IMG/VR virus record: IMGVR_UViG_3300023223_000794
Location: 1 to 53,735 of that record
From: a virus
Lineage: Duplodnaviria; Caudoviricetes
Direction: 5' to 3' (one strand)
DNA: 53,735 nucleotides
In this document: positions 32,011 to 50,738 of the stretch, piece after piece
How the letters are laid out: each line of letters opens with the position of its first letter
Position numbering within the stretch: the first letter of the stretch is position 1
Program-made: the position numbers and the translations under genes
Notes under the pieces: generated by a model
Told to the model about the DNA's origin: nothing
What the model saw: only the letters and a program-made list of their open reading frames with translations
The model's database searches: none

Positions 32011-32026
32011 AGCAAGTCTTGTGCCA
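32011..32026 (-). promoter_or_regulatory. Sigma54 (-24/-12) promoter
   Basis: Minus strand TGGCACAAGACTTGCT; exact spacing; faces the early genes. Confidence 0.8.
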
Positions 32027-32399
32027 TATCGCCCGCCCGCTTGCCTTTCTCCTTAAAGGCGCTCTTCTTGTTTTAGCACAATACCTGGTTTCTCTTTAAA
32101 TACTTTAACTCTTAAATTGCATAGTTTACGTAGTAGAAATTTTTAGTCTGGGGTACACCCCCTGGGACGTAAATTGTGCATTTAGTTTAACTCTTATTTA
32201 AAGTTTTTTCATGTTCTGTGTATTGTGCTAGGTCTTAGTAGCGTTAAAGTTGCTAAAAAAGAGTAAATAGAGCCTATTAGTTTAAATAGGAGTTAGTCAT
32301 ATTAGTGTAAAAGTTTAATTTCAATATAGACATATATTTACACTCCATAAACTCCACTAACTAACAGTTAAAGTATATTGGAGGAATCGTGGTTAAGTG

Positions 32400-32678
32400 C
32401 TAAGTCTTAAAGTTTAAATCACCGCGTACTGCATCCTCTATCAGCAAGAGGATATTTATAGTTTCACTTTCCGTAAAGGTGCAGTCTTTATGTCCCGGCC
32501 ATAGTAATGCAATCTTTTTGATCTTGGCTCGTAGTTCTATTTTAGTCTGTTCTGCACGTTTTGCTAAGTGCTCTAGTGCAGCTTTATTATATTTGTATTC
32601 CTGTAAGAGAAGTTCTTGTGCTGCAATGCGAGCCTCTAGATCTTCTATGTATTTCAACGCTTGTTCTAGGTCCATCAT
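32400..32678 (-). CDS. Hypothetical coiled-coil protein, first gene of the minus arm
   Basis: 92-aa ORF starting ~34 nt after a sigma54 promoter. Confidence 0.6.
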   Translation of the reverse strand: MMDLEQALKYIEDLEARIAAQELLLQEYKYNKAALEHLAKRAEQTKIELRAKIKKIALLWPGHKDCTFTESETINILLLIEDAVRGDLNFKT

Positions 32679-32711
32679 AGTGGTTCTTTCTTAGTGGTTA
32701 CCGTTACTAGT

Positions 32712-32727
32712 AGCAATTACCTTGCCA
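32712..32727 (-). promoter_or_regulatory. Sigma54 (-24/-12) promoter, leftward
   Basis: Minus strand TGGCAAGGTAATTGCT; intergenic, at the head of the minus arm. Confidence 0.75.
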
Positions 32728-32797
32728 ATTGCGCGTGGTCTGTTGTTTCTATTCCTTTAACGTTAAATTCCTTTACGTTTCCTTAGCGCCCGCGCCT

Positions 32798-32819
32798 ATG
32801 CGTCATCTTCCCCACGCAT
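32798..32819. promoter_or_regulatory. Candidate enhancer palindrome ATGCGT-N10-ACGCAT
   Basis: Perfect inverted repeat between the divergent sigma54 promoters; extra half-sites TGCGT 32821, GCGCAT 32833, ACGCAT 32858. Confidence 0.4.
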
Positions 32820-32974
32820 TTGCGTCATACTCGCGCATCCGTTGGGTGTATCCATCCACGCATACAGTTTAAGAATAGGGGGTGGGGGGCCAAGAATCCG
32901 ATTAGATCCAAGAACATAGCAACTCGTAAAATTTTAAAATCTGAAATCTGAAACTAAACTTAGAAATCTAAATA

Positions 32975-32990
32975 TGGCATAGAGAATGCT
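32975..32990 (+). promoter_or_regulatory. Sigma54 (-24/-12) promoter, rightward
   Basis: TGGCATAGAGAATGCT at the head of the late arm; shares TATGGCAT-N6-TGCTAT with the capsid promoter. Confidence 0.75.
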
Positions 32991-33003
32991 ATGAATATGG
33001 TAC

Positions 33004-33165
33004 ATGGAAGCTCGGGACGAGAAGGAAAAGAAAGGTGAAGCGGAAGCTAACGCGAGGAAAGCTTTAAGAAGTAGTGCAAGGGAAGCGCGGGAAGCGAAGA
33101 CTGAAGCTAGTGGAATGGAAAAATGGGGAAGGGAGTTAGAAGAAAAGGAGTTAGGAGACCCGTGA
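33004..33165 (+). CDS. Small charged protein (53 aa, not in ORF track)
   Basis: MEARDEKEKKGEAEANARK...; ATG lies close to the predicted transcription start; its TGA overlaps an in-frame GTG of the next gene. Confidence 0.4.
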   Translation: MEARDEKEKKGEAEANARKALRSSAREAREAKTEASGMEKWGRELEEKELGDP

Positions 33166-33395
33166 AACCTGTAGAGTGGATGGTAGGGGGAATGGTGCTG
33201 ACGGTGTGTGGAAGTATAGGAGCTACAGTGGGAGTACATTTGTGGCAAGGGACAGAGTTAAGTGAAGCAGGGGAGAAAATGTTTAGTGATACGCTACATG
33301 TAATGCTGGGAATGATTTCAACGTTTGTAGGGTTGAGATTAGCAGCAGAAGGGAAAGTTGAAAAGAAAATTGAAAAGACAAATGAGGAAACTTGA
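33123..33395 (+). CDS. Small two-TM membrane protein (possible holin)
   Basis: Two hydrophobic segments and a charged C-terminus; start may be GTG 33162. Confidence 0.5.
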   Translation: MGKGVRRKGVRRPVKPVEWMVGGMVLTVCGSIGATVGVHLWQGTELSEAGEKMFSDTLHVMLGMISTFVGLRLAAEGKVEKKIEKTNEET

Positions 33396-33753
33396 TGAAT
33401 GGTTTCCGGACGAGTTAGATTTACGATTTCGGGATATGGCGATGAAAAAGCGGCCGTTCATGCTACTCGCGAATTTTCGTTACGTAAGAAGTAACGGTGA
33501 AGTGATTACTGTTCCCAGCGGATACACAACGGATTTTGCAAGTATTCCACGAGTACTTCATGGAGTGTTTAATCCGATTGGACGTTATGGAAAAGCTGCA
33601 ATAGTACATGATTGGCTATGTGATACACGCAAACGGCCAAGCGTAGAAACACATAATATGTTTATAGAAGCTATGCACGCATTACGAGTAAAACGAAGAA
33701 CCATTTGGGCCTTAGGATTTGCGGTTCGTATATTTGGATCTCGATGGAAATAA
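33382..33753 (+). CDS. DUF1353 family protein
   Basis: ITVPSGYTTDFASIPR...KAAIVHDWLC...F.EAM...AVRIFG; start taken as ATG 33382. Confidence 0.85.
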   Translation: MRKLDEWFPDELDLRFRDMAMKKRPFMLLANFRYVRSNGEVITVPSGYTTDFASIPRVLHGVFNPIGRYGKAAIVHDWLCDTRKRPSVETHNMFIEAMHALRVKRRTIWALGFAVRIFGSRWK

Positions 33754-33760
33754 CTAAATA

Positions 33761-34240
33761 ATGAGCACGAAACTGGAAACTGAAGAGTCTCGCATAGGAA
33801 CTATGAATGCAGTGGAAACTGTAGTTTGTGAACGTTTCGAAACAGGCGATGATACACTCAAAGAAATTGCCGCAGACTTGTCTTTACCAGAAGTACAAGT
33901 TGTAGCGATTCTATCAAAGTTTTCTCCACAATTTCGTGATCACTTGCCGGTGGAAGGTGAAGGAAATGGAGAAGTTCTGATTCGGGATTCAGTAATTGTA
34001 GCAAACCAAGGTGAATTTGATAAACTACGAAACCATGCACATGATTTAGCAATATCTGCGGAGAGTGAGGCAGTTCAGTGGAGTGCGACAAGATATCTCT
34101 TAGATGAAGTAAAGGGCCGAAACGATCAGAAAGAAGATAACGGTAGAACTCAACTTAACGTACAGTTTCAAATAATTGCTGCAAGAAAAGAGAATACAGA
34201 AAAACTCATTAAACAGCAATTAGCAATAACAACAGGATAA
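33761..34240 (+). CDS. terS: Putative terminase small subunit
   Basis: N-terminal HTH (TLKEIAADLSLPEVQVVAIL), SEAVQWSATRYLLD helix; upstream of TerL. Confidence 0.6.
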   Translation: MSTKLETEESRIGTMNAVETVVCERFETGDDTLKEIAADLSLPEVQVVAILSKFSPQFRDHLPVEGEGNGEVLIRDSVIVANQGEFDKLRNHAHDLAISAESEAVQWSATRYLLDEVKGRNDQKEDNGRTQLNVQFQIIAARKENTEKLIKQQLAITTG

Positions 34241-34244
34241 AATT

Positions 34245-34355
34245 ATGGCATTTGATAATCATAAAAAACCAACTAAGCATAAAAAAACTTTTCATGAAGT
34301 AAGACCAAAAGAGAAAACATTTCACAAAACGAAAAAGAAGATGAAAACTAAATGA
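34245..34355 (+). CDS. 36-aa Lys/His-rich peptide (not in ORF track)
   Basis: MAFDNHKKPTKHKKTFHEVRPKEKTFHKTKKKMKTK; fills the terS-terL gap with an ATGA overlap into terL. Confidence 0.5.
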   Translation: MAFDNHKKPTKHKKTFHEVRPKEKTFHKTKKKMKTK

Positions 34356-36223
34356 TTCAAGCCGTTCCCACTACCGAAACTCCACAAGCTTTTGAAACTG
34401 AAGCTATTGCAGATTACTCTTCAGATTTTTCTCGACGAAATACAGACTTTTCAGAACGTCCTGATCCTCTCACAGAAGCTGAGAGAAATACTGTTAACGA
34501 TTTCGAAGGTCCGAGCCAATATCTTCCGCTCCCCTTTGAAGATCCAATTAACATGTATGGATTTTTCTCTACGCCATTCCAGCGCGGAGACCTTATTCTA
34601 TCAAAATGGCAATTAGAAACTTGCTCGTATGTAGTTCACGGAATCCAAGGGGTAACACCAACTGCAAAGATTCCCTTGAAGTTTCTTCTTCGTGCATGCA
34701 ATGGCTCAGGAAAAGATGCGTTTTTTACGGCGCCTCTTGTGGTATTTCTTACGGCCACCTGTATACGTCACAGATCGATTGTAACTTCTTCTTCAGATAA
34801 CCAACTTAACACACAAACTGAAGCATATATTCGTACATATGCCCAGACCATTAACGATTTCTTCGACTCCAAAATCTTTATAATCAAGCGTCGACATATT
34901 ATTTGTTCACTTACGGGTTCTGAAATTGTACTTTTCGCCACTGATGAAGCTGGACGTGCTGAAGGTTTTCATCCATTCCCTGATTATCCTGATACCGGTA
35001 TGCTTATTGCAATGAATGAAGCTAAATCTATTGAAAAGGATATCTATCAGGCTTTACGTCGTTGTAATGGTTTTAACCGTTGGGTAGAAGTTTCTTCTCC
35101 TGGGCAAATGGAAGGAGAGTTTTACGAAAACGACGAGCGAGCTATACCTTGGGATCAAAAAGAAATTGCGCCGTATGACAAAGCTATTTATATTAAACGA
35201 AAGATTCCGTATACAATGTGCCCTCATTTGCAAACAGCAGATAGTGAAAATCTAATTGAGGTTCACGGTAAGGATGATCCTTGGATTCAATCAATGCTGT
35301 TTGCAAACTTTTCTAACGATCCCGAGGGTACTATCATTGATGGAGTGTTACTGGCAAAAAATAAACGTAATGCTGTAAAGTACTTAAAGATTAAAGGTGA
35401 TGCAATTGGGTTAGATTTTTCTATGGGAGGGGATGCATTAACTTATGCATATCGTTCAGGTAATACTTTAAAATTCCCCGTTCGTTCTTTTAGAGAATCT
35501 AAAGCACAAAAAATTGCGGACCAATATGTAAGATGGTTTATCGAAGATAAGGTTCCCCTAGCGCAGGAGATTGACGATGGCGCAGAGCAAATTGTTATTA
35601 ATGGGGATGATGGTGGCGTTGGTAAACCTATTATTGATCTTATAGAGGCAAAGGGTTATCGGATAAACAGAATTACAAATAACTCACCACCAACGATTAC
35701 GAACACTCGAATACGCCGTTATGGTAATATGGGTGCTCAAATGTATTTTACAGTGAGGTTTATGTTAACGCATGGCGTTATTAATCTTGATACCGCAGCC
35801 GAGAGTACTCGAAAACAATTGCGCAATCGAAGATATGAACGGCGGGGTAACACTAAGTATCTTTTTCTAGAGAAAAAGGAAGATTTACGGAGAGTTGGTA
35901 GACCTTCCCCGGATGAAGCAGATGCCTTAGTCCTTGCATTTCGAAATCTCACTGTATTTGATTTCTTGCGTGAGGGACATATCACGTCTGTACGGCAGAC
36001 TTATGAGAGCGCTAAGATGACTAAAGAAATTAAAACGGTTCAAACTATAAGAACCGTTAAAAACGAAGTCAGAGGTGCGGTATATACGCTTGAACAACTT
36101 TTTAAAATGGCAGAGCTTCCAACAGTTAAACATAAACCAGGTAATCCAGGAATAGTTCGTAAAGCAATAGGAGTTGTTGCGCTTTCCAGGGGCTCTGGAA
36201 GAAATAGGAGAATACGACAATGA
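34352..36223 (+). CDS. terL: Terminase large subunit
   Basis: RACNGSGKD Walker A, EGFH, MNEAK Walker B-like, SSP, nuclease IGLDFSMGGD, DDGGVG, SPDEADAL. Confidence 0.92.
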   Translation: MIQAVPTTETPQAFETEAIADYSSDFSRRNTDFSERPDPLTEAERNTVNDFEGPSQYLPLPFEDPINMYGFFSTPFQRGDLILSKWQLETCSYVVHGIQGVTPTAKIPLKFLLRACNGSGKDAFFTAPLVVFLTATCIRHRSIVTSSSDNQLNTQTEAYIRTYAQTINDFFDSKIFIIKRRHIICSLTGSEIVLFATDEAGRAEGFHPFPDYPDTGMLIAMNEAKSIEKDIYQALRRCNGFNRWVEVSSPGQMEGEFYENDERAIPWDQKEIAPYDKAIYIKRKIPYTMCPHLQTADSENLIEVHGKDDPWIQSMLFANFSNDPEGTIIDGVLLAKNKRNAVKYLKIKGDAIGLDFSMGGDALTYAYRSGNTLKFPVRSFRESKAQKIADQYVRWFIEDKVPLAQEIDDGAEQIVINGDDGGVGKPIIDLIEAKGYRINRITNNSPPTITNTRIRRYGNMGAQMYFTVRFMLTHGVINLDTAAESTRKQLRNRRYERRGNTKYLFLEKKEDLRRVGRPSPDEADALVLAFRNLTVFDFLREGHITSVRQTYESAKMTKEIKTVQTIRTVKNEVRGAVYTLEQLFKMAELPTVKHKPGNPGIVRKAIGVVALSRGSGRNRRIRQ

Positions 36224-38115
36224 GTGCAGGATTGCATGATTTTCAACCTGATGATTCAACTGTAGATACAGTGGGTGTGGTTAAGCCGCAAGTTACTCTT
36301 ACAACAGAAGTACTTACACCAGCAGAAGAGGACGAAAAGCTTCCAACTTATGAATCAATTCGGCCACGCGTTTCTGCAATTTTGAGTTATTGGAAAACTT
36401 CTATCATGCCTCAACTTGATGCTCAGTCTGAAGATCGACGTTTTGAGATTGATGTTGCTGAGCAACGAAGAGAAGGGAATCTTGATGCAGATGAAATCAT
36501 GGTCCCAATTCGAACAATTTCACAGAACGTAGAGACAGCTAAAGCTGGATTTGTAGAACTTTTGGGCGGTGAGTCTGGTGCGCTTGTTTCATTACACAGT
36601 GACCATTTCTTAGAAGAGCCTGATAAAATTGTGTACTTACAAAAGTTAATCAATCGAGAGATTAAATCTCGTGGTTGGTTGAAAACTCATGTACGGGTAA
36701 TCGATTCATTTTGCACTCACGGGTTTTCTCACTATGAACTTATTGTTGACAATGATGCTCCATTAGGTTGGCGAATTGCAGATATACCAGCACGGACTTT
36801 ACTATTTCCAGAAGCGGTTAATTCTATTGCAGACGCGGATATTGTAATTCGGCGAAAGACTATTCTACCAAGTAGACTTCAAGCACTTGCTAAGATTGAT
36901 AGTATGGAATTTGAACCAGATGCTGTAGCAGAGATTTTGTTACAGCATACTATTTCAGAGAAGAGCGATGATGTTGACACTACAAAGCGTTTAAATGCTT
37001 CTATACTTTCTGATACTACATTAGATAGTATGCGAATTGAATATTTAAAGATTTACTTTCGGAATCCTGACGATGACAATGCACTTTATCAAGGGCTAGC
37101 ATGGGAGAATGGGTCTCTCTGGCTCCGCAAGCCCCAAAAATTGATGTCAGGAAAACTGAGGGATACTACAAAACCTGATTCTGACGTTAAGTTTGTTGAA
37201 GAACCTGCCCGTAGAATGCCTTTCTACGAATCTATTCTAATTGAAGACGAATCGGATGTTTTAACTGAGAAACGTGGCCGTGCACAGTTAGATAAACCCA
37301 CGCAAGAAGCAAATACTGTACTTGCTTCTGCTTTTGCTAATGGTGCTCAACGTTCTTCAAATATTCATGCATCACCTGCAAACCCGCAATTCGAGGGTGA
37401 AGCGTCACTAACAAATAAGAAGGTTATGAATGGTGTTGCGTGGGATTCTCCTATGAATTTTCATCAGCAACAACCACCAAGTGACTCTTTGCTCCTGGGA
37501 ATGCGGCAATTCACTGCAGAGAATAACAAAGATGCAGGGAATATTACATTTTCTACGTTAGATCGTGCAAAATCGAATACAACTGCGCAAGAATTACGGA
37601 CTTCACAAGGTGTTTCGGATAGTTTATCTACTATTTCAAAATTAGGGTTCATTAACACTCTTCGATCAATGTTTGCAGATGCGTTAGCTATTACTTTTTC
37701 TCGGATTCTCTTTGGTGAGCTTGAGATTCCAAGTATGAAACCCGATTTTCCGATTAAAGAGATTGTAGCTAAGCCAATCTTTGTAGGTTCTGCGGCTTCA
37801 GAAGATGTGATTGAACGAAATCGTATTCTGGGAAATATTGTACAGATTCTTCCGTTGTTACAAGCAGGCTCAAAATATAGTGACGTGCTGATAGAATTGA
37901 TGATTCGATTAATGTTTCCTGCAAGGGCGGCCGAGATTATTGGAGATGCTGACAAGAATGAGCAGACGCAAGAAGCAATGAAACAGCTTCTGGAACCGGC
38001 AAAACGCATGGCTGAGTTAATTTTGCAGTATGTGAATAGTAATGGACAACTTGATGCGCTTAAAACCGCTGAGTTGGCTGAACTGGCGAAGAGTTTTATT
38101 GAAACTAACGTATAA
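36220..38115 (+). CDS. Portal protein
   Basis: 631 aa coupled to terL; RG..LDKP.Q, TTAQE motif; size and position match podovirus portals. Confidence 0.8.
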   Translation: MSAGLHDFQPDDSTVDTVGVVKPQVTLTTEVLTPAEEDEKLPTYESIRPRVSAILSYWKTSIMPQLDAQSEDRRFEIDVAEQRREGNLDADEIMVPIRTISQNVETAKAGFVELLGGESGALVSLHSDHFLEEPDKIVYLQKLINREIKSRGWLKTHVRVIDSFCTHGFSHYELIVDNDAPLGWRIADIPARTLLFPEAVNSIADADIVIRRKTILPSRLQALAKIDSMEFEPDAVAEILLQHTISEKSDDVDTTKRLNASILSDTTLDSMRIEYLKIYFRNPDDDNALYQGLAWENGSLWLRKPQKLMSGKLRDTTKPDSDVKFVEEPARRMPFYESILIEDESDVLTEKRGRAQLDKPTQEANTVLASAFANGAQRSSNIHASPANPQFEGEASLTNKKVMNGVAWDSPMNFHQQQPPSDSLLLGMRQFTAENNKDAGNITFSTLDRAKSNTTAQELRTSQGVSDSLSTISKLGFINTLRSMFADALAITFSRILFGELEIPSMKPDFPIKEIVAKPIFVGSAASEDVIERNRILGNIVQILPLLQAGSKYSDVLIELMIRLMFPARAAEIIGDADKNEQTQEAMKQLLEPAKRMAELILQYVNSNGQLDALKTAELAELAKSFIETNV

Positions 38116-38136
38116 TGTAGAGAAAAAATCTTAGAT

Positions 38137-38460
38137 ATGACCACAGCAGCAGTACTACAAAGTCGGACACGGTCTACTGAAAAACAGGTAGAGCGTATTG
38201 CAGCATCAAAAAAAGATCCGCCATTAGATCCTGGCGAACCTGACTTACATGAAGTAGAGCTTAAACGCTGGTTAGCTTTGACAGTTACTCAAAAGTTTTT
38301 CACGGCTATTGAGAAGGAGGAAGTTATAGCCTATGAGCGGCAGTTAAGTAATTTACGTAAAGGAAACACTACTGTAGCTATGGTTTATACAACTGAACAA
38401 AATGTTTTACGTAAAGTGCTTGCAGCCCAAGATCTTGAAAGATTGAAAACTATAGTCTAA
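38137..38460 (+). CDS. Small head-module protein
   Basis: 107-aa helical ORF between portal and scaffold. Confidence 0.55.
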   Translation: MTTAAVLQSRTRSTEKQVERIAASKKDPPLDPGEPDLHEVELKRWLALTVTQKFFTAIEKEEVIAYERQLSNLRKGNTTVAMVYTTEQNVLRKVLAAQDLERLKTIV

Positions 38461-38481
38461 AAAAGAAAGAAACACCTTACT

Positions 38482-39699: not shown

Positions 39700-39713
39700 T
39701 TTCATGGGCACTA

Positions 39714-39729
39714 TGGCATGATTCTTGCT
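39714..39729 (+). promoter_or_regulatory. Sigma54 (-24/-12) promoter for the major capsid gene
   Basis: TGGCATGATTCTTGCT; intergenic, ~100 nt upstream of ATG 39832. Confidence 0.85.
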
Positions 39730-39831
39730 ATAGTATAGACAGTCACTACAAGGATTGGGCTACCATTTAGACTAATTGTCACTAATTTTGCATTGGGCAG
39801 TGCTACTGATGTAAACTTAACTCTTAGACTT

Positions 39832-41121
39832 ATGGCAACAATAGCAGTTCCTAGTATTGATCAACCAAGAAATATTGAGATTCAATTCTCGATAGAAGAT
39901 AGAGAGCGATATAATACGCTACCGTTCTATTTTGCAAAATTTCAAGTGGATGATATGCGCTTGAATTCTGTGTATGCAAAGATGACGCGTAAAAGACGAT
40001 GGCAACCAAATGAAGGTCCGACAATGACTGCGGTTAAGAAAGCACGTTCACCTTTGATTCGTCAAAATGCATTCCCAGTCGGTGTTCAAAGTGAACCATT
40101 GATTGATACTTACGATGTGACTGAGGTGGCGAAGCGCGCGAATGTACATCGCCAGAACTTTCAATCGCCAGTATTTAAATTCGGTCCGCATTTTGAAAGT
40201 TTCTTTGCAGATAATATTCAACCGAATGTAGATAACATTATTACTCAGATTCGGATGTTCCGGGAGTTCTTTCTTCGGACAAGGATGTTTCATAAAGCTC
40301 CGTATATTTATCTTCCTGATTCAGTGGATAGACTTTATGCTGCACCTAGTACTGAAGGTGCTGCGGATGGTTCTGTTGGAAAGACTACGGACTGGCTTCA
40401 AGCTATGTCAACGCAAGTCGGTGATCCAGGAAATCTTTCGCTGAATACTGTTTATCAGACAGCACAAGCAATGTCTACAGACATTGGTGCGCTGCCGTTT
40501 AAGCCTGGTGGAGATATTGTGAATTCAAACGGTCTTAAGGACAAGTATGTTCTGATTACTTCGGAAGAGGCTTATATGCAGTTTAACTTTGATCCTTTTC
40601 GCTTGGAAAATCGAGAACTTTCTTTGGATGTAGTTACAGATAATTTTAAAGGTGATATTTTTGGTCGAGTTACTTGTATGACAGAGACGCATCCTTTGCG
40701 CATGTTGAATGATGGAACTTTTCCAGCACCGGAAACTCGGATTGAAGAGTCGGCAGGAGCGCCGGATCTTATTGGCGAAACGGTTCCAAATCCTGCATAT
40801 GTTACAGCTCCTTGGGAAATTGCGCTTATGTTTGGTGCCGATTCCTTCGAGTCTTTTGAGGTTGGTCCTCCACCAAAACACTTCTCGTCGAACACTGCGC
40901 CTAGTAAGCAGAAGTTTAATGCGATGCGGTGGAATGGTGAGGTTCGCATGATTGATAATATGATCATACCTGATGGTTCTGGCGGCTATGCTACGAATGA
41001 GTGGGGTGAGTATCTCAAGTTAATCGCTGATGTTACAATTGGTGCAATTGCAGTAAGAGAATTGAACGTAGTTCCTATCTTATTCAAGCGTATTAGAGGC
41101 GTTGAAAATTCCATTGCATAA
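39832..41121 (+). CDS. Major capsid protein
   Basis: 429 aa from ATG 39832; follows portal and scaffold; own promoter; KYVLITSEEAYMQF..D P-domain-like segment. Confidence 0.75.
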   Translation: MATIAVPSIDQPRNIEIQFSIEDRERYNTLPFYFAKFQVDDMRLNSVYAKMTRKRRWQPNEGPTMTAVKKARSPLIRQNAFPVGVQSEPLIDTYDVTEVAKRANVHRQNFQSPVFKFGPHFESFFADNIQPNVDNIITQIRMFREFFLRTRMFHKAPYIYLPDSVDRLYAAPSTEGAADGSVGKTTDWLQAMSTQVGDPGNLSLNTVYQTAQAMSTDIGALPFKPGGDIVNSNGLKDKYVLITSEEAYMQFNFDPFRLENRELSLDVVTDNFKGDIFGRVTCMTETHPLRMLNDGTFPAPETRIEESAGAPDLIGETVPNPAYVTAPWEIALMFGADSFESFEVGPPPKHFSSNTAPSKQKFNAMRWNGEVRMIDNMIIPDGSGGYATNEWGEYLKLIADVTIGAIAVRELNVVPILFKRIRGVENSIA

Positions 41122-41144
41122 TTAATTAAACACAATATAACATA

Positions 41145-41775: not shown

Positions 41776-41780
41776 AAGTT

Positions 41781-42227
41781 ATGTCTGTATCTCTAGGAGC
41801 AGGAACATTACCAAAACAGCCAACTGCCTTTGAAGTAATTTTCTCGCAGTTGAAAACAATGCAGACGGCGCAGGCAACGCTTTTAACAGAACTTCGAGTA
41901 GGAACTGAAGTAGTATTTGTTGCGCCAGATACAAATCCAATTGTTATTGCAGTAACTGATACAGCTGAACGGTTACATGCTGTGGACGGAGAGCTTCTAG
42001 TTCGTAGCGTAATTCTTCATGGAGTTAAGAGTTTTGATGCAAATGGTAAAGGTATTTCAAACGGGAATAATGTACGATTTGGAATTGCTAATGATAAAAT
42101 GCCTGTTGTAATTACACCGGGCGGATTTGCAGTTTATACAGCACCTGGATTTTCTTTCTTTGATCTGAATGACGTTTGGATTATTGGAGACGCAGGGGAC
42201 GGTGTGCATATTGATGGAATGAGGTAA
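41781..42227 (+). CDS. Putative virion accessory protein
   Basis: 148 aa, beta-rich C-terminal part, in the structural arm. Confidence 0.55.
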   Translation: MSVSLGAGTLPKQPTAFEVIFSQLKTMQTAQATLLTELRVGTEVVFVAPDTNPIVIAVTDTAERLHAVDGELLVRSVILHGVKSFDANGKGISNGNNVRFGIANDKMPVVITPGGFAVYTAPGFSFFDLNDVWIIGDAGDGVHIDGMR

Positions 42228-42233
42228 TAGCAA

Positions 42234-44432
42234 ATGGGATTTAACGCGTCAGGTGTGTCAGGTGGGCAATTGCAAGTTTACGGAACTCCGTTCTCTGATC
42301 CTGCTGTTATTACTGACATTGCGTTATTTCGTGCTAGGTTTGTAGGACCAGTACACACGCCCCTGCCAACCGTAGATTTTCCTGCGCCTTTGGGACCAGT
42401 TTTGGATAACCTTAATCCGCCTACAGGAGCTATTGCATTGAAAGATTCTTTAGAGAGTTATAATTTAGGGGATGTAACAAACCAAAAGATGAATGGAGGA
42501 GTTGGGTGGTCTGGTCCTTGGCGTACAGGAATAAACCCAGGAGCTTCGGAGGGGACTGGTCTTGCTGAGGATTTTGCTCGTGGTGCAGTTACAGGTTTTG
42601 ACGCCTTGGATTATGAGTTAACGGCAGAGCAATCTAACGCTGATCCGGATCCTATTATACTTGGGCGTCCGGCGCTAAACTTTGCAGGGCTGACTCAATG
42701 GGATGCTATTAATTCTCTCGGTGCTCCTGCGGGACAACTCGGTTACCCAGATTTGGTAAAGTTTCGGGCAAAAAGCGATCCTTTTGGTGTAGGACTTGAT
42801 GCGCTATGGTATCCGAACGACGGGATGTATTTGGATATGGTAGGTTCCCCTGGTGGTGCATTAACTCCTGCGGCAGAAGATGGCGCAGAGATTCAGAGTG
42901 GCTGGAGTTTAGTACATTTGCGGACTAAGGCAAGCTGGGGTTTACAACCGGGGGTTAAATATCGTATACGAATTCGGTTTGCAGGAAATGGTAGGAGTGT
43001 TATTCATGGGAATGATCTGGAAGTGTATCTTACTACAACACTCTTTGATAACCTTCCGGATACCGGTAGAAGTATTGCTAGAGCTTCCGTGTCAAATCCA
43101 ATTTTAAAAACTCGACCACAGTATAAAATAATTAAAAACATCGATATTAATCACCCACAAGAAGATCTAATTTTAGTTTTTTCTGTTTCACCATCATCTT
43201 CGAATTTTAAATTAAATATTCGATGTTCTTTCGTTGGGAATTTAAGGACCAGGACATCACAAAATTTAGTTAATGCTTCTTTTGGGCCTTTAGTTTTTGA
43301 GGTGGAGATTAAAACTCCTAATGGAGAAGTAGTATTCTTTGATGACTTTGATACTGAGAATCCGCCCGCAAAAGATCCAGGGCTGGTTTTAGAAACTTCG
43401 CAAGGGAAATTTGTAAACTCAGGTGATGTATTTCTACCATGGGGCGGTGAAGGCTCATGGTCAGGGCCTTGGAAGATTGGAGCTGAAGATGGTGTCGGGG
43501 ATGATTCGATGGAATCGTATGAGATTGCAAGTAGTAGTGCACTGAATAGATTAGGCGGTGGGATTGGATGGTCTGGTCCTTGGAAAGTAGGGCGTGCAAA
43601 TCAAGATTTAGCTTTTCCTGAAACTGAAGATCCTGCGGAACCTTTATTAGGATCAGATACTATTGAAAGTTATGCTTTGGGCGCTGTGGTGGCTGTATTG
43701 AGTAATTATCCTTCTAAACTAATTCCTTTATCTTCGTTAAATTCTTTAGTTTCTTCGTTGGTAGATTCTGGTACAAACAGTACTGTGCGGCCACCTTGGT
43801 TTCAGGTTGGTGGAGGTACAGAGTTTAATACTTTTGAAGGCGTAGGGTTATATTTACTGCTTCGACCGTCTAGTAATTCATTGCTTACTTCGGCTGATCC
43901 TGATGAAGATTTTGGAGCACAGATTGATGCAACCTATTCGTTGGATTCCGCAGATGTCCCAGCTCTTGTAGCCGAAAGATTTAACACTGTATCAACCTTT
44001 GATCTTTTAATAGGAACTTTAGTGCGTTTAACGTTGACAGTTGGGTCTAGCCCTTATTCTCCCGAATCTGCATATTTCTGGGCACGCTGGGGAAGTATTG
44101 GTACAGAGAGTACAAAGTTTCTTTCGACAAACCAGAATTTCATGCAAGAAGTAAATACGCTTGCTATAAACACTGGAGCGGCTAAGCAGCCTACGACATT
44201 GGTGCTTCTTATGACAGTGGGCACAAGTGGTCCACAGAGTTTAAACCTTGGTGCTGCTTGTGTAACGCGGGCTAGTAAAACAGGCCGGCCATTCTTGCTG
44301 GAGATTCTGTTGGAGAATGTAGATAATGGTGCAACAATATTCTCTGAGAATTTCGATACGTCTAATTCAGTAACTCGTGAACCTTTAGACGGAGGTTCTG
44401 CATGGGATGGACCTTGGGTGGTAGATCCTTAA
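42234..44432 (+). CDS. Large virion-associated protein with GG-x-x-W-x-GPW repeats and two related beta-sandwich inserts
   Basis: Four W(S/D)GPW motifs and three D(S/T)xESY motifs; the two inserts end in similar FFDDFDTEN / FSENFDTSN. Confidence 0.6.
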   Translation: MGFNASGVSGGQLQVYGTPFSDPAVITDIALFRARFVGPVHTPLPTVDFPAPLGPVLDNLNPPTGAIALKDSLESYNLGDVTNQKMNGGVGWSGPWRTGINPGASEGTGLAEDFARGAVTGFDALDYELTAEQSNADPDPIILGRPALNFAGLTQWDAINSLGAPAGQLGYPDLVKFRAKSDPFGVGLDALWYPNDGMYLDMVGSPGGALTPAAEDGAEIQSGWSLVHLRTKASWGLQPGVKYRIRIRFAGNGRSVIHGNDLEVYLTTTLFDNLPDTGRSIARASVSNPILKTRPQYKIIKNIDINHPQEDLILVFSVSPSSSNFKLNIRCSFVGNLRTRTSQNLVNASFGPLVFEVEIKTPNGEVVFFDDFDTENPPAKDPGLVLETSQGKFVNSGDVFLPWGGEGSWSGPWKIGAEDGVGDDSMESYEIASSSALNRLGGGIGWSGPWKVGRANQDLAFPETEDPAEPLLGSDTIESYALGAVVAVLSNYPSKLIPLSSLNSLVSSLVDSGTNSTVRPPWFQVGGGTEFNTFEGVGLYLLLRPSSNSLLTSADPDEDFGAQIDATYSLDSADVPALVAERFNTVSTFDLLIGTLVRLTLTVGSSPYSPESAYFWARWGSIGTESTKFLSTNQNFMQEVNTLAINTGAAKQPTTLVLLMTVGTSGPQSLNLGAACVTRASKTGRPFLLEILLENVDNGATIFSENFDTSNSVTREPLDGGSAWDGPWVVDP

Positions 44433-44459
44433 ACGAGTTAATAAAATAGATACAGTATT

Positions 44460-45197
44460 ATGGGATTAGCAGTAGTTGATATTTTCACGGGCGGTGATCA
44501 GTCTTTTAAGCTTGAGGATGTTCCGATTGCGCGAGGCATGTCTATGCCTGTGGCTGATCCATCTACTGTAGGTGGATCTGTTGGTACAAATTGGACGAAG
44601 TTACTGATTGGAATTCAATTTGCTATGGATGGAGCCGTGGATAACATTAGTAATCCTTACCTTTACCTTGGACTTTGTTCTGGCACGTCACAGATTCTAG
44701 GCGGTGGTGCACCAAGACATTTTATGGGTGGTCGTTTTGGTGGAGGGACTTTGACATATGCTGCTGGACCGCCTGAGTCTTTCTCAAACGGTGCAGGTGC
44801 CGTAACATTCCAGCGAAATCTTAATGGTACGGTAGTTGAAACTGGTTTTGGAGGCTCTTTTCAGAATAGATATTCTGGTGATCCAGAAGATCGTCGAGGA
44901 GTTCTTGCAATGCAGTTTGAGAAAACTGGAGGAAATATTGTTATGTGGGCAGGAGGTCAGGCAAACGCAACCACTTATCCTGATATTACTACGGTTAAAT
45001 TCAAGCAACTCTTTGATCTAACAGATTTGTCTGACATTGGAACTTGGGATTCAAACTATGCTGCTGTAGAAAACACTACTCCACTTTCAGACGAACAAGA
45101 TGTAACTAATGGTTGGTTAGATGCCATAAATATCTACTATAACAAAACTGCAATTCCGGCACACAAGTACGGGGTTCACTTTAAAAGGTTAGCATAA
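44460..45197 (+). CDS. Putative virion accessory protein
   Basis: 245 aa, Gly-rich and beta-rich. Confidence 0.55.
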   Translation: MGLAVVDIFTGGDQSFKLEDVPIARGMSMPVADPSTVGGSVGTNWTKLLIGIQFAMDGAVDNISNPYLYLGLCSGTSQILGGGAPRHFMGGRFGGGTLTYAAGPPESFSNGAGAVTFQRNLNGTVVETGFGGSFQNRYSGDPEDRRGVLAMQFEKTGGNIVMWAGGQANATTYPDITTVKFKQLFDLTDLSDIGTWDSNYAAVENTTPLSDEQDVTNGWLDAINIYYNKTAIPAHKYGVHFKRLA

Positions 45198-45739
45198 TGA
45201 GTGTTGGAGCACAAACAGTAAATGATAGGTTGCAGGGAAAAGCCGCAGCAACTGTTCCTGCGGCAATTAGTGATCAAGAACTTGTAGCTGCGTTGTTTGA
45301 TACCGTTGGAAGGTTAGTGACAGTCAGTGAGGATTTTGGACAGAAGCTTGCGAGGATAAGTGACATAACGCCAGCGGTAGCTAGATCTGCAACAATTTCT
45401 AATACACAACTTACAGCGCCAGGGAGGACGACTTATCAAGATATCTCGTGGGCTAGTTTTATAGCTTATCGAATTACAATTGCAGCTGTAGATACAGATG
45501 TAGATTTAAGTATTGTTCAAACTGATGATTTGGCAGATACTACTCCTGCTATTTCTCCTTTAGATTTTACAACCAAGGTGGCAGGATCAACACTTACAGA
45601 TCATGTAATTACAATTACAGTAAATGGAAAGTATTTATTGATTGCTAGGCGTATGGCAACACATGCTGCGTTAAGTTTTGATGCAGAAAATGGGGGGACA
45701 GCGGTAACAGTAGATAGCGCAACAATTATAGGAAGATAA
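45197..45739 (+). CDS. Putative virion accessory protein
   Basis: 180 aa, Thr/Ala-rich. Confidence 0.55.
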   Translation: MSVGAQTVNDRLQGKAAATVPAAISDQELVAALFDTVGRLVTVSEDFGQKLARISDITPAVARSATISNTQLTAPGRTTYQDISWASFIAYRITIAAVDTDVDLSIVQTDDLADTTPAISPLDFTTKVAGSTLTDHVITITVNGKYLLIARRMATHAALSFDAENGGTAVTVDSATIIGR

Positions 45740-45746
45740 AAATAAC

Positions 45747-46262
45747 ATGGCTAAAATTAACTTTAAAGAACAGTTTAATCCTAATGCTCCTAGAGCGGGA
45801 CAATTTGTTCCAGAAGAAGACCAGCATAAGCAAGAATCTGGTAGTCTATTAAGACCTGATTTTAATAAAGAAGATCCTGAACATCCTCTTATTGATCCAG
45901 GAGAAGTTACAAATACGGAACTTCGTAGGGCAGTTTTTGAGTCTTTAGCTGAAGGCATAGGGTTTGGCCAAGGATCAGGTTTAATTTACCGAGATTTAAA
46001 ACCGAAAAAACTTGCTACTGAACGTTGTCGTGCAATGTATAGAGAGGTCATGGAGATTAATGGAAATATGCTTTTTGTTAATTTTAATTCTCTCGATGAT
46101 TTTGATGCATATGAAATAGCAGTAGCAGAAAATACTCCGGGCGGGGATACTGATTTAGCTATAGATTGGTTAGCTCTTACAGCAGTACAGTACGGTCTTT
46201 TAGGTACAGCAACTTTTGATGAAGTAAAAGCAGTAATTCCAGATATTCCACAAGGGGTGTAA
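45747..46262 (+). CDS. Hypothetical protein in structural arm
   Basis: 171-aa ORF. Confidence 0.55.
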   Translation: MAKINFKEQFNPNAPRAGQFVPEEDQHKQESGSLLRPDFNKEDPEHPLIDPGEVTNTELRRAVFESLAEGIGFGQGSGLIYRDLKPKKLATERCRAMYREVMEINGNMLFVNFNSLDDFDAYEIAVAENTPGGDTDLAIDWLALTAVQYGLLGTATFDEVKAVIPDIPQGV

Positions 46263-47036
46263 ATGTCATTTAATATAAATATTCGCGATAGTAAACGTTT
46301 TACTGTCGATGATATAGGGTTTGGTTTAATTAGAGGATTATATCCAGGAGCTTTTCCTGTTATTCAAACAGGTAGTGTTGCCGGAATATCTGCGAATGTT
46401 AGAACAGTTGTTTGGAATGGCGCTTCTAGTGGTGACGAACCTTATCCTTGGCAAAATTCTGGTTTTTCTTTAGAGGTTGTTTCAAGTAGTCCTTTAGATG
46501 TTCAGGTTATAGAAATAGATGGATTAACTGTAGGACAAGAATTTCAGAATTCTGGACCACTCACTTTAAATGGAACAACTCCTGTAGCCGTTCCAGGGAC
46601 ATGGATTGGTGGTGTACACGGAGCAAAACTTTTAGCAAACAATGGCTTAGATATTAATGTAGGGACTATTGAAATTAGACTTGCAGGGGGCGGATTAGTT
46701 TTAGGAAAGATACTTCCAACAGAAGGTGCAACTCAAAATGCTATTTTTATGGTTCCTTTAGGTCTTACTTTATATATTCAAGCTATATTTCTTAGTTGCA
46801 TAGTTATGAATTTAGATTCTGTTGTAACTTTACAAATTTTTAAAAAGGACCCCGGAGGAACTTGGCAAGGACTAGTTCCTTTTAGCGCTGGTGCTCAATT
46901 TATTCCTTTTTTGATTCCATTTCCTGTTGGTCCCGGTTCTCAAGTAGAATTGCGAGGATTATGTAACAGAAATATGGCTACTATAAGTGTGGGATTTAGT
47001 GGTGTTCTTGTTCCGCCAGGCTTTGATGAATTTTAG
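46263..47036 (+). CDS. Putative virion structural protein
   Basis: VVSSSPLD...LTLNGTTPV...NVGTI...Q.AIFMVP.G pattern seen in phage beta-sandwich proteins. Confidence 0.55.
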   Translation: MSFNINIRDSKRFTVDDIGFGLIRGLYPGAFPVIQTGSVAGISANVRTVVWNGASSGDEPYPWQNSGFSLEVVSSSPLDVQVIEIDGLTVGQEFQNSGPLTLNGTTPVAVPGTWIGGVHGAKLLANNGLDINVGTIEIRLAGGGLVLGKILPTEGATQNAIFMVPLGLTLYIQAIFLSCIVMNLDSVVTLQIFKKDPGGTWQGLVPFSAGAQFIPFLIPFPVGPGSQVELRGLCNRNMATISVGFSGVLVPPGFDEF

Positions 47037-47042
47037 TTCATT

Positions 47043-48266
47043 ATGAGTAACGATAGTCATCCAGAAATTACTTTAGAGCGTTGGCGTGGAGCTGGAGCAG
47101 CATTCTCTCCGGACTTTAGCGCGTCGTTGGCGACCTTTGAGAAATATGGCTGGGCTGTTACCGGGAACCCTCTACATGTCGATGGGCCGACTGGTGGGAA
47201 GGCGTTAAGTTTTGATGGGGCGAGTAGACTGAACACGGGGAGTAAACCAGACCGAGGACTTACGGCTATTTCGATCTCGGTTTGGGCTTTTGTTGATCCT
47301 GATGATTTTGATGGTGGGGCAGCTACTATTCTCGATAATTCGGGATTATCCCCAGGCTCGAACAGCGGATTTGATTTATTATTCGATGATCGAGGAGGGG
47401 CGAACCCCACAAAAGGTGTTTTTTTTGAGTTTAAAGGTTCAAGCGGTAGAATAGGCAGATCAAATGATAATGTAATATCTGTTGCAGGTTGGTATCATAT
47501 TATATGCATCTACTCAGTCAACGTTTTTGAATTTTACATAAATGCAGTTGATGAAATGTCATCAGGAACGCCTGACGGAAACTATAACCCAGGTGACTTT
47601 AATCTAACAGTGGGAGCGAACACAACAGATGGAACATTTCCATTAACGGGACGTGTGGGAGATGTCCTGATCTTCCCCAGGGTCCTAACGGCAACTGAAG
47701 TCTCCCAAATCTACAACAACACCGTTTTCAAATACAAAGACAAGCTGATCAGCATGTGGCATGGGGATTCTCCGAATTGGAGAGATGCGATTGGAAGTAA
47801 TGACGGGACGGGAACAGGACTGGACGATACGAATATTGTAGCTGGGATCAATGGGTTGGATCGAGCGACGAGTTTTAATGGGACGGATGAGCGTGAGGAT
47901 ATGGGTGACATTGGATTGGTGAAAACCGTTGTTCATTTGGTTAATCCTGGCTCTACTACAGAACAGTTTACGCAATTGGATGCTGGTAAGTCAATTGATC
48001 TTTCAGGGGGGGCAGTGACTTATACGGGTATTACCGCATCCGCGACTTTTGTGGACGATGAAGCTAGCACAACCGTTGTGGCAGATAGGTTTCAGTTGAT
48101 TGTTTCAACATTTAACACGGCGATAGTCTCCGCTGATTTCTCGGTTGCTTATGACGGCACAAATTTTGGAGCTATTAAATCAAGTGTTGTCGGAGTATTC
48201 AGCGATGAACTCACCCAACTCCAAGTCACAGATATGAATAGGCTTATCCGACAAGGGACATTTTAA
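47043..48266 (+). CDS. LamG/concanavalin A-like jelly-roll protein (two domains)
   Basis: ALSFDG, ISISVW, GWYHIICIY, FYIN, GRVGDVLIFPRVLTATEVSQIY. Confidence 0.8.
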   Translation: MSNDSHPEITLERWRGAGAAFSPDFSASLATFEKYGWAVTGNPLHVDGPTGGKALSFDGASRLNTGSKPDRGLTAISISVWAFVDPDDFDGGAATILDNSGLSPGSNSGFDLLFDDRGGANPTKGVFFEFKGSSGRIGRSNDNVISVAGWYHIICIYSVNVFEFYINAVDEMSSGTPDGNYNPGDFNLTVGANTTDGTFPLTGRVGDVLIFPRVLTATEVSQIYNNTVFKYKDKLISMWHGDSPNWRDAIGSNDGTGTGLDDTNIVAGINGLDRATSFNGTDEREDMGDIGLVKTVVHLVNPGSTTEQFTQLDAGKSIDLSGGAVTYTGITASATFVDDEASTTVVADRFQLIVSTFNTAIVSADFSVAYDGTNFGAIKSSVVGVFSDELTQLQVTDMNRLIRQGTF

Positions 48267-48268
48267 AT

Positions 48269-48901
48269 ATGAGCGCGGTAGACCGTATATTTGATCCTTC
48301 GTTTCTCCAAGATTACTGGCCTTTGAACAAAGATGCTTTGGACTATAGTGGGCATGGGAGGGATGGGACGCCCACAGATTTGACGTTTGTGGAGGGGCCG
48401 TTTAACGGAAAGAACATTGGAGACTTTAACGGAAGCACAAGCGAAGTTGATCTTGACGATACAGTTTTACCAATAGGTTCTACTCCGCGTTCTATTACTT
48501 GTTTCTTTCAAGCAACTGATATAACTAGTGTAAAACTTTTTGATTATGGAACAGATACAACTGGGCAAAGGTTTGGTTTAGGAATTGGCGCAGGAAGTGT
48601 GCTAGAGTTTGACGGTTCTTCTGCTGACGTATCCGGAATTACAACTATTATTGCAGGACAACCTTATTTTACAGTAGTAACCTGGGATGGGGTAAGTTTG
48701 AAATTATATCTTAATAGCGTGTTTGAATCTGTTGGAACACCTACGCTTAATACAACACTTAGTGGTGGAGCTAAGATAGGAACTAAATTTGATGGTGCAA
48801 CTGAGGATTTCACTGGCCAAATTTGGAAAGTTAAGATTTTAAACGTAGCTCTTTCTGTTGAAGAAATTACAGTTCTTCATCAATTTGATAGTAATGCTTA
48901 A
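48269..48901 (+). CDS. LamG-like jelly-roll protein
   Basis: YWPLN..ALDYSG.G.DGT, VVTWDG..LKLYLN, F.GQI..VKILNVALS.EEI. Confidence 0.85.
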   Translation: MSAVDRIFDPSFLQDYWPLNKDALDYSGHGRDGTPTDLTFVEGPFNGKNIGDFNGSTSEVDLDDTVLPIGSTPRSITCFFQATDITSVKLFDYGTDTTGQRFGLGIGAGSVLEFDGSSADVSGITTIIAGQPYFTVVTWDGVSLKLYLNSVFESVGTPTLNTTLSGGAKIGTKFDGATEDFTGQIWKVKILNVALSVEEITVLHQFDSNA

Positions 48902-48902
48902 A

Positions 48903-49916
48903 ATGATAGCTAAGCAACCATATTCAATTTTTCCGGACTTAGAGATTACTACTTTAGAGGGCGTTTACTTTACGTTAGAAACGTCGTATAGCGGAGCTGA
49001 TGGTAGTGATAAACGTAATAATGCTACTTCTTTAACAAATGCATCTTTTCAAAGTGATGGTTCTGTAAGTTTTACCGCAGGGGATTTCGTTATTCCATCT
49101 ACAACGTTTACTACTCAAATCTATTGGATAAATGAAAGTGGTCAATGGAATCGTTACGTGGATAATGGGACTTTGATTTATAAGAATACTGTAGTGGTTG
49201 GATCAAAGCCTTTGACTATAACGTCTACAGGTTTTACAGGTGAAACTGTTCATGTTAAAGGGATTGAGTTATATTCTCATGTATACACTGTAGATGAAAT
49301 TAACGCAGATTTCCAGAAAGCTGTACCTGATTCGAACGTTGCATTCCTTACTAGTAACTTCATTGAAGATTTCAGCCGTTTTGGAGCAGGATTAACTCCT
49401 ACTGCTGTTTCCTTTCTTTCACGGTCTGCGCTTTTTCCTGTTGCTACTAGCGTAGTAGTCAGTGATAATGACTTTGCTCCTGTTGGTAATTGGAGTTGTG
49501 CGGGATGGTTAAGGTTAGCTTCATTTGGTGGTAGTAGTCTTGGTCGAATTTTGGACAATGGAGAAACTATTCTTCGTGTTGATGATACTAATGACACGCT
49601 TTCCTTCGCCTCGGATGGCTCTACATTTGCAGTCTCGGCAACGAATAGCTTGGAGTTAAATCGCTGGATTATGTTCGGGATACGTCGAGCTGCTGACGGA
49701 ACTTGCGACTTCTTCGTAGATGGAGAGATTAACGGAACAGAAAGTCAAGCTTCAGGAACGCCGGCCGCTGGAACTACTTCTATGCACATAGGAAATGACT
49801 CTTCGTTTACTCCAGTGTTCGATGGAAAATTAACGTATTTTACTGTTTGGAATGGTTCACGTTCACGAGGAGAGTTTCGAAATTTCTATGAATCAACTAG
49901 ATCTTTAATTGGATAA
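48903..49916 (+). CDS. LamG-like jelly-roll protein
   Basis: WSCAGWL, LNRWIMF, FFVDG, HIGN...FDGKL..FTVWN; start taken as ATG 48903. Confidence 0.75.
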   Translation: MIAKQPYSIFPDLEITTLEGVYFTLETSYSGADGSDKRNNATSLTNASFQSDGSVSFTAGDFVIPSTTFTTQIYWINESGQWNRYVDNGTLIYKNTVVVGSKPLTITSTGFTGETVHVKGIELYSHVYTVDEINADFQKAVPDSNVAFLTSNFIEDFSRFGAGLTPTAVSFLSRSALFPVATSVVVSDNDFAPVGNWSCAGWLRLASFGGSSLGRILDNGETILRVDDTNDTLSFASDGSTFAVSATNSLELNRWIMFGIRRAADGTCDFFVDGEINGTESQASGTPAAGTTSMHIGNDSSFTPVFDGKLTYFTVWNGSRSRGEFRNFYESTRSLIG

Positions 49917-50217
49917 GACTATGAAAGCAAGTAGAACTGACATTTACATTGGTACGGCTTTGGCTACTCTGGTGCTTTTCTTGGGTTGGCTTTCTACTCA
50001 ACAGGCTAATACTAAATCTCGTGTAACAATTATTGAAAACAGTTTTAGCAGTCCGGAAAAGTTGGGTGAGCTTTCTAGCTCTTTGCGTAAGTTAATTGAT
50101 GGTAATGTACTAACCGCCAGAGAAGAACGAAAAGAAATTTTACAGAGTGTTAACACATTGAATCTTGCAGTAGCAGTCTTGGATGAAAGGGTTTCTCGTA
50201 TTTTAGAAGAAAAATAA
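49909..50217 (+). CDS. Membrane-anchored coiled-coil protein (possible lysis-related)
   Basis: N-terminal TM segment followed by heptads. Confidence 0.55.
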   Translation: MDKTMKASRTDIYIGTALATLVLFLGWLSTQQANTKSRVTIIENSFSSPEKLGELSSSLRKLIDGNVLTAREERKEILQSVNTLNLAVAVLDERVSRILEEK

Positions 50218-50222
50218 ATGTT

Positions 50223-50738
50223 ATGAATTCTGAAGATGGCGAAGGGGGCCAAAGGGGAATAGAAGAAAATCATGCATCACTAGTCGTTGACTTAATGGTA
50301 AGAAAAGGCTATCCGGTAGTTCAACCAAGTCATGAATCGCACAAAAACAATTTCTTTAAATTTACAGTAATTTCCTTTGGCTTTATCCTAGGTCTACTCT
50401 TAGTTTGCAATTTAAAGATTGTCTCACAGTGGCGAATAACAATCGATGAAGATTTAAAAACCGTAGATCAAAAGTTAAAAGCTTCCCTGATCGTACCGCT
50501 TCTGTTACACTCGAATGTAACTAAAAACACTGCGATATTAAATGGCACGAAAATTGCTGTAAGTAGTTTAGAGAAGGCGAAAAACGAAAACACTATTCGA
50601 ATAAATAACTTGTATATGATGCTTGAGCAAGTGCAATTTGATTTGAAAACCCTCAAGAGTGAAAATCTTATACTCCTTGATTCGATGGTAAATGGAAATA
50701 ACGAAGTAGTAAGAACCCCAAAGAAAGAAAAATTATGA
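50223..50738 (+). CDS. Membrane-anchored coiled-coil protein
   Basis: TM segment FTVISFGFILGLLLVC followed by coiled coil. Confidence 0.55.
   Translation: MNSEDGEGGQRGIEENHASLVVDLMVRKGYPVVQPSHESHKNNFFKFTVISFGFILGLLLVCNLKIVSQWRITIDEDLKTVDQKLKASLIVPLLLHSNVTKNTAILNGTKIAVSSLEKAKNENTIRINNLYMMLEQVQFDLKTLKSENLILLDSMVNGNNEVVRTPKKEKL
50543..50558 (+). promoter_or_regulatory. Sigma54 (-24/-12) promoter, internal to a CDS, facing the tail genes
   Basis: TGGCACGAAAATTGCT, a full match to TGGCACG-N4-TTGCW. Confidence 0.65.

Follow-up and report, generated by a model that had tools for sequence, protein, structure and literature searches.

Predicted sigma-54-type promoters and a phage-encoded activator with no apparent DNA-binding domain in an uncultured clade of ~50-kb phages

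The IMG/VR entry IMGVR_UViG_3300023223_000794 (Duplodnaviria; Caudoviricetes) is 53,735 bp long and complete, its ends carrying a direct repeat of 144 bp, and the whole of it, called the window here, was analysed for promoters of the -24/-12 (sigma-54) class and for a protein that might activate them. Its genes form two arms. The left arm is read leftward from ~32,027 to 11,629 and encodes a helicase, a PD-(D/E)XK nuclease, an AAA_24 ATPase, a split family-A DNA polymerase and a DUF3987 protein. The right arm is read rightward from ~33,000 past the record end to 11,624 and encodes a terminase, a probable portal, a putative capsid protein, three Laminin_G_3 proteins, a gp80-like fibre and a 1241-aa protein. 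Five sites match the TGGCANNNNNNWTGCT pattern (TGGCA-N6-WTGCT), three of them at the arm junction near 32-33 kb, and the left arm also carries a gene for a sigma-54 activator, or bacterial enhancer-binding protein (bEBP). The features on which the argument turns are these, with scores from a position weight matrix (PWM):

32712..32727, minus strand: P_L1 (site 2), TGGCAAGGTAATTGCT; intergenic; 21.3 bits; predicted start ~32701, 23 nt before ATG 32678
32011..32026, minus strand: P_L2 (site 1), TGGCACAAGACTTGCT; 19.2 bits; head of the 20-kb left (replication) arm; predicted start ~32000
32975..32990, plus strand: P_R1 (site 3), TGGCATAGAGAATGCT; intergenic; 21.4 bits; heads the right arm (small genes, DUF1353, terminase, portal); predicted start ~33001, predicted leader ~122 nt
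39714..39729, plus strand: P_R2 (site 4), TGGCATGATTCTTGCT; intergenic; 20.3 bits; precedes the putative major capsid gene; predicted start ~39740, leader ~92 nt
50543..50558, plus strand: P_R3 (site 5), TGGCACGAAAATTGCT, a perfect consensus; 22.5 bits; upstream of the fibre genes; predicted start ~50569
39832..41121, plus strand: putative major capsid protein, 429 aa; start ATG 39832 set by alignment
25275..26186, minus strand: sigma-54 activator (bEBP), 303 aa; PF00158 at 167 bits

A pattern scan of both strands of the window returned exactly five matches, and these are the five that a sequence-only reading had picked out by eye, with the same coordinates, strands and letters. That reading had allowed that its search might be incomplete, and for TGGCA-N6-WTGCT it turns out to have been complete. 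Its estimate of ~0.2 chance matches was also close, since 100 dinucleotide-preserving shuffles gave a mean of 0.23 and a maximum of 2, with 0 of 100 reaching five; the looser TGGC-N8-TGC gave 13 matches versus 4.0 expected. When the PWM was trained on 56 intergenic sites from 12 related phages, with the window excluded, the five sites took ranks 1 to 5 (22.5, 21.4, 21.3, 20.3 and 19.2 bits) with no antisense site among them, and the sixth rank, at 14.6 bits, fell antisense inside an open reading frame (ORF). In 20 first-order Markov simulations scored with the same matrix, the top score per simulation was 10.1-16.9 bits. The five sites thus form a class of their own in the PWM scan. All five have the GG and GC doublets exactly 10 nt apart, differ from TGGCAC-N5-TTGCW by 0, 0, 1, 1 and 2 mismatches, and are co-oriented with their own arm (5/5). 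P_R1 and P_L1 are divergent and lie 247 bp apart.

Relatives of the phage were sought with an alignment of the window activator and three short homologues, which retrieved 210 viral contigs, of which 80 were kept. Many of the kept contigs are 47-56 kb long with terminal repeats, and helicase, activator, nuclease, split polymerase and DUF3987 genes are common to them and the window, which is a member of an uncultured clade of ~50-kb phages. Twelve relatives fetched whole, together with the window, make up the set of 13 genomes. Alignments were required for this: with a single activator or terminase protein as query, nothing close was found among the viral contigs, and a DNA-level search of the phage collection found no near relative. 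Most activator matches in the 'phages' collection are on records with features annotated as bacterial regulators, the window terminase is at most 29% identical to those of Akkermansia phages, and the window polymerase has four weak matches among cultured phages.

The motif is conserved across this clade. The strict pattern occurs in 28 of 29 whole relatives, with 175 matches versus 3 for the reversed pattern; the exception, G003, has CTGCT or GTGCT at the -12 element and five sites under a relaxed pattern. In the 13 genomes the relaxed pattern gives 103 matches versus 3 reversed, 79 of 85 sites are co-oriented with downstream coding sequence, and 58 of the 85 are intergenic, in genomes where non-coding DNA amounts to 15%. 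TGGCATG and TGGCACG are the most enriched 7-mers in the upstream intergenic DNA of the same set (297 upstream regions), from which no other promoter-like word emerged. The junction layout of two tandem leftward sites and one rightward site recurs in relatives, and most of them have a sigma-54 site 1.3-2.9 kb upstream of the helicase-activator pair. A co-oriented site also lies no more than 700 nt after the activator gene in 67 of 78 viral activator loci, with 0 antisense; in most relatives (L002-L081) this post-activator site stands 35-200 nt past the matched end of the activator and is often TGGCAYGAATCTTGCT. What began as five motifs of a single genome becomes a probable strategy of transcription shared by the clade.

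Position was also compared at the capsid gene. The candidate has homologues in 12 of 12 relatives at 31-40% identity. Considered as an HK97-fold major capsid protein, it has no Pfam, PHROG or PDB sequence match, and a PDB profile search gave 0 matches. ESM-Atlas structural rows show a resemblance to N4-gp56 family capsid proteins (template modelling score 0.6-0.8), and the gene order terminase-portal-405 aa-capsid candidate fits a capsid role. Synteny and the likeness to N4 gp56-type proteins support the label 'capsid gene' that had been assigned from the letters alone. An AlphaFold model built from eight sequences has a predicted local distance difference test (pLDDT) score of 31. All 13 genomes have TGGCAY-N6-NTGCT ahead of their capsid homologue, at 118-277 nt from the capsid start in 11 of them; in the other two (G002 and G015) the element falls a little way into an ORF that is too long and probably does not begin at its first start codon. 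In the 13 promoters compared here, TGGCAY and TGCT never change and keep the same spacing, and the bases after TGCT vary. A retrieval by capsid homology, made without reference to the activator, yielded 43 loci. The element precedes the capsid gene by 96-271 nt in 41 of them, and there is one antisense match. Of the 15 capsid-retrieved records outside the activator-derived list, 12 encode PF00158, among them every one of the 11 records with a completeness of 90% or more; the other three are fragments of 40-66% completeness.

The capsid leaders of nine relatives (G001, G002, G009, G010, G014, G015, G016, G021 and G024) also contain one or two small hairpins between promoter and ATG, with the loop AAGGGCAT or a one-base variant such as gcgAAGGGCATcgc (examples are L083, L091, L098, L101 and L114), and the 7-mers enriched in upstream DNA include AAGGGCA and AGGGCAT. 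The hairpin is a candidate conserved leader RNA motif; the capsid leader of the window is without it.

The activator has the AAA+ core of its family, with Walker A GPTGVGKE, a GSFTGA loop, Walker B DE and the sensor II motif NVRQL, and the nearest solved structures are the AAA+ domains of FlrA, NifA, ZraR, NtrC, FleQ, NtrC1, LuxO and PspF, every one a classic bEBP. What surrounds the core is short. Pfam finds no HTH_8 at the C-terminus, the protein stopping 18 aa past sensor II, and residues 1-72 match no Pfam family and contain no receiver domain. In an alignment of 13 clade members, which are 263-355 aa long, GPTGVGKE, D165-E166 and N281-V282-R283 are invariant and the loop is G(A/S)FTGA in 12 of 13, with NSFTGA in G012; the N-terminal region is variable except for an F-I-T motif ahead of the core. 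Because every one of these proteins ends shortly after sensor II, the clade activators are predicted to have no DNA-binding domain. 'Enhancer-binding' is then a misnomer for the window protein, which is of the FlgR/DctD250 type.

Sigma-54 promoters are silent without an activator. We consider it very probable that the five sites are -24/-12 promoters for the host sigma-54 holoenzyme, opened by the phage AAA+ activator with no DNA-binding domain. Binding, activation, starts and timing are predicted as follows. The host holoenzyme would occupy the five sites as a closed complex that cannot open DNA alone, and the phage activator would supply the G(A/S)FTGA loop that contacts sigma-54. Because the activator appears to have no DNA-binding domain, it probably remodels any bound holoenzyme from solution, enhancer-free, like FlgR and DctD250; the lack of that domain fits the five window sites, which have no common upstream element, and the divergent promoters of some relatives, which are back to back. 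From starts predicted near 32701 and 32000, two tandem leftward promoters would transcribe the 20-kb replication arm together with a small gene; of the three rightward promoters, the first (start near 33001) would serve the packaging and portal block, the second (near 39740) the capsid gene and the genes that follow it, and the third (near 50569) the fibre genes. Since the activator gene lies behind P_L2, its expression would be subject to positive feedback. The sequence-only reading had held that sigma-54 promoters head the main transcription units, and this is supported by the phage activator, the clade-wide enrichment, the kept position of the capsid promoter and the recurring junction layout. 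A broader proposal, which we put forward tentatively as something short of probable, is that the whole clade runs its replication and virion genes through host sigma-54 with a minimal enhancer-independent activator that drives its own gene, that the circuit is primed by a host activator or by one delivered with the DNA, and that the host sigma-54 regulon is switched on as well.

Several observations weigh against this interpretation. The five start positions are predicted from the motif. Sites 2, 3 and 4 are intergenic, and the placement of the other two in the sequence-only reading needs correction. Site 1 overlaps ATG 32027 of ORF 31554-32027 and so is not upstream of that start; if it is used, translation would begin at the in-frame ATG 31949, and the 12 relatives contain no homologue of this gene to settle its start. 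Site 5 is inside ORF 50223-50738, 359 nt ahead of the fibre gene at 50918, and the genes downstream of it have no homologues in the 12 relatives, so that its position cannot be compared; relatives do have co-oriented sites within small tail-region ORFs, as for site 5. The window has no site directly after the activator gene, unlike 67 of 78 relatives, whether it was lost or never present. The phage has no sigma-54 gene (no PF04552 match), and the presence of sigma-54 would depend on the rpoN of the host. The window loop is GSFTGA, not GAFTGA; a GSFTGA variant is tabulated for a Desulfovibrio nitrogen regulator in the portion of PMC4641369 consulted. Many of the 80 and 43 viral loci are closely related, and the counts overstate the number of independent events. 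Finally, the activator gene is 5.8 kb behind site 1 and only sigma-54 sites are recognisable upstream of it. Sigma-54 promoters need the activator, which is itself encoded behind them, and this creates a bootstrapping problem: the circuit must have a primer, be it a host activator, an unrecognised housekeeping promoter or a delivered protein.

What, then, might transcribe the activator gene for the first time? The sites could be sigma-54 promoters for middle and late genes only, with early genes and the first activator mRNA coming from housekeeping-sigma promoters and the left-arm sites giving a later boost or feedback. This alternative, which contests only the sigma-54 dependence of the early genes, is a serious one, although we stop short of calling it the probable one. 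It draws on the silence of sigma-54 promoters before any activator is made, the activator gene having no sigma-54 site nearer than P_L2, and it could make use of two unexplained non-coding stretches in the left arm, 32028-32399 (372 bp) and 28418-28648 (231 bp). Genes without Shine-Dalgarno motifs also imply that the promoter consensus of the host may be unusual too. However, the housekeeping promoters that it needs do not stand out: sigma-70-type sites number 16 versus 21.8 expected in 24000-34000 and 40 versus 43.4 in 34000-53735, the Bacteroidota -7 word TAnnTTTG occurs 51 times versus 50.5 expected, the 297 upstream regions contain no second promoter word, and most relatives have a sigma-54 site upstream of the helicase-activator pair, at the distances given above. 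The sequence-only reading had made early as well as late genes sigma-54-dependent. That claim is supported at the level of the motif, the 20-kb left arm having no other recognisable promoter; the bootstrapping problem is what it leaves to be answered. A virion RNA polymerase was considered as the early-gene primer and found no support, the largest virion-arm protein showing no sign of RNA polymerase.

The remaining alternatives contest the sites or the activator. The word might be an extended -10 promoter for the housekeeping sigma (TGcTAtAaT), with TGGCA incidental or part of a -35-like TTGGCA, and it is true that the clade consensus continues after the -12 element as TGCT-A-t-a and that a simple scan gives TGGGCA-18-TATAGT with TG, overlapping site 4. 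Yet the six bases after TGCT vary freely (ACCATC in G016, TTATAC in G003) while TGGCAY and TGCT are invariant, which argues against this reading; only 10 nt separate TTGGCA from the -10-like hexamer, less than a -35 element needs, and a sigma-54 activator in every near-complete genome would be left unexplained. We regard it as extremely unlikely. Slightly less so, and still very unlikely, is that the activator serves host takeover through the host sigma-54 regulon and that a different phage factor binds the phage motif. Like DctD250, an activator that has no DNA-binding domain would fire host sigma-54 promoters too, so that host genes are likely to be affected either way, but the motif is the canonical sigma-54 consensus at exact spacing, motif and activator co-occur throughout the clade, and no phage RNA polymerase or sigma factor was found, with the largest protein having no family or PDB match. 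Chance or an artefact of composition has nothing in its favour except the small number of sites, five, and in view of the shuffles, the PWM, the strict and relaxed clade counts and the 41 of 43 capsid loci its probability is negligible.

Other features near the sites, and a weak further candidate, are as follows:

32400..32678, minus strand: gene served by P_L1, 92 aa, coiled-coil; no family
31554..32027, minus strand: first gene behind P_L2, 157 aa from ATG 32027 or 131 aa from ATG 31949; no family
50918..51319, plus strand: fibre protein, Pfam Gp80 (podophage GP4 fibre I), 114.5 bits; first annotated gene behind P_R3
51319-52350: Laminin_G_3 protein, directly after the fibre gene
5029..5044, plus strand: weak candidate sixth site, TGGTATAGTCTTTGCT; 13.1 bits, within the simulation range; in a small ORF directly after an 819-aa protein
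32789..32863, no strand assigned: repeat cluster between P_L1 and P_R1; CCCRCGCMTWTGCGTCAT twice, 22 bp apart, and, within 66 bp, 3 of the 25 ACGCAT words found in the window

The gp80-like fibre gene and the Laminin_G_3 proteins fit the label 'tail genes' that had been given to the region behind P_R3. For the weak site at 5029-5044, the one supporting observation is that G009, G010 and G015 have strict sites in a small ORF after their homologue of the 819-aa protein. The 32789-32863 cluster is specific to the window and is not found at the other three promoters, and in some relatives the back-to-back divergent promoters leave no room for one of its type; by its geometry it is a candidate operator or enhancer, perhaps part of the priming of the circuit. 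A shared enhancer, TGCGTCAT, was tried and rejected (35 occurrences versus 32.5 expected, and absent upstream of sites 1, 4 and 5), as was a structured RNA at 32095-32200 (z-score -0.91). An Rfam scan found no family at gathering score, and intrinsic terminators in the window are at chance level.

Some observations concern other parts of the genome. The family-A polymerase is split between 15233-16222 (minus strand) and 17099-18667 (minus strand), one gene for the exonuclease/N-terminal part and one for the C-terminal palm and fingers, with ~900 bp and two small ORFs between the halves; it is likewise split in 10 of 12 relatives, and G002 has one ORF to which both halves align. The 1241-aa protein that closes the right arm (7899-11624, plus strand) corresponds to proteins of 1000-2350 aa in relatives. 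It has no family or PDB match, an ESM-Atlas row with LPD38, a polyvalent-protein domain, being the only lead, and it may be an ejected internal protein. Within the 231-bp gap upstream of the DUF6197-helicase-activator genes there is a tRNA-like element (28574-28641, minus strand) that scores 27.5 bits with the Rfam tRNA model (gathering score 29; E 0.0014) and has a shortened anticodon arm; ARAGORN finds no tRNA in the window.

As for the host, a search of 185,579 species genomes found no capsid relatives, and no exact match turned up for 29 nt taken from the tRNA-like element. In the window and the 12 relatives, Shine-Dalgarno motifs precede 5-26% of genes versus a background of 9-16%, and leaders are A-rich. 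This lack of Shine-Dalgarno motifs suggests a host with Bacteroidota-like translation initiation.

If the interpretation is correct, growth of these phages would depend on rpoN, which would then be both a route to resistance and a determinant of host range. It also suggests that the phage forces infected cells to express their own sigma-54 regulon. Viral metagenomes contain many members of the clade, with 210 contigs that encode a relative of the activator, and the conserved element gives a simple sequence rule for locating the capsid-gene promoter in its genomes. A natural, minimal, enhancer-free activator together with compact promoters that are tightly off would be useful as parts.

Phages redirect the host RNA polymerase through sigma factors of their own, anti-sigma factors or appropriators, or they bring their own polymerases. 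The strategy proposed here, if true, is a different one, in which a phage lineage works on host sigma-54 and supplies only the ATPase activator. In T4 late transcription (gp55, gp33, gp45) the phage provides its own sigma-like proteins and a sliding clamp. The likeness, as far as the consulted part of PMC2988020 goes, is that host RNA polymerase is redirected to late genes by an alternative promoter class and an activator that is not a sequence-specific DNA binder; the difference is that the window phage would borrow sigma-54 from its host and bring the ATPase only. Pseudomonas phage YuA is described, in the excerpt seen of bioRxiv 10.1101/2023.10.13.562163 (citing Ceyssens et al. 2008), as having a single sigma-54-like promoter (P015), next to one that is sigma-70-like and a further motif specific to the phage. 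Like the window, it has a phage promoter region assigned to sigma-54. Unlike the window, where no promoter class other than sigma-54 is recognisable and the phage has an activator gene that the clade conserves, YuA is not credited with a phage activator in that excerpt. Htm (Gp204) of an E. coli phage is, in the part seen of bioRxiv 10.64898/2026.10.06.757011, a bEBP-like AAA+ protein without the GAFTGA loop, and that text reports no sigma-54 phage promoters; the window has both loop and promoters. A jumbo-phage survey does not mention sigma-54, and full-text literature searches, with subscription journals and supplements outside their scope, found no description of a phage with its own GAFTGA-type activator and matching promoters.

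The closest functional models are bacterial. According to the consulted portions of two papers, FlgR of H. pylori has no DNA-binding domain and acts on the closed complex without binding DNA (PMC3930126), and DctD250, a bare AAA+ domain, fires diverse promoters, intragenic ones included, in an enhancer-free manner (PMC3844500). On these accounts both resemble the window activator in having an AAA+ core, a GAFTGA-type loop and no C-terminal helix-turn-helix, and they differ from it in being bacterial, FlgR having a receiver domain and DctD250 being a laboratory truncation. The window activator, in turn, is the product of a phage gene, begins with a short stretch that matches no known family, and seems to work for the phage's own structural and replication genes.

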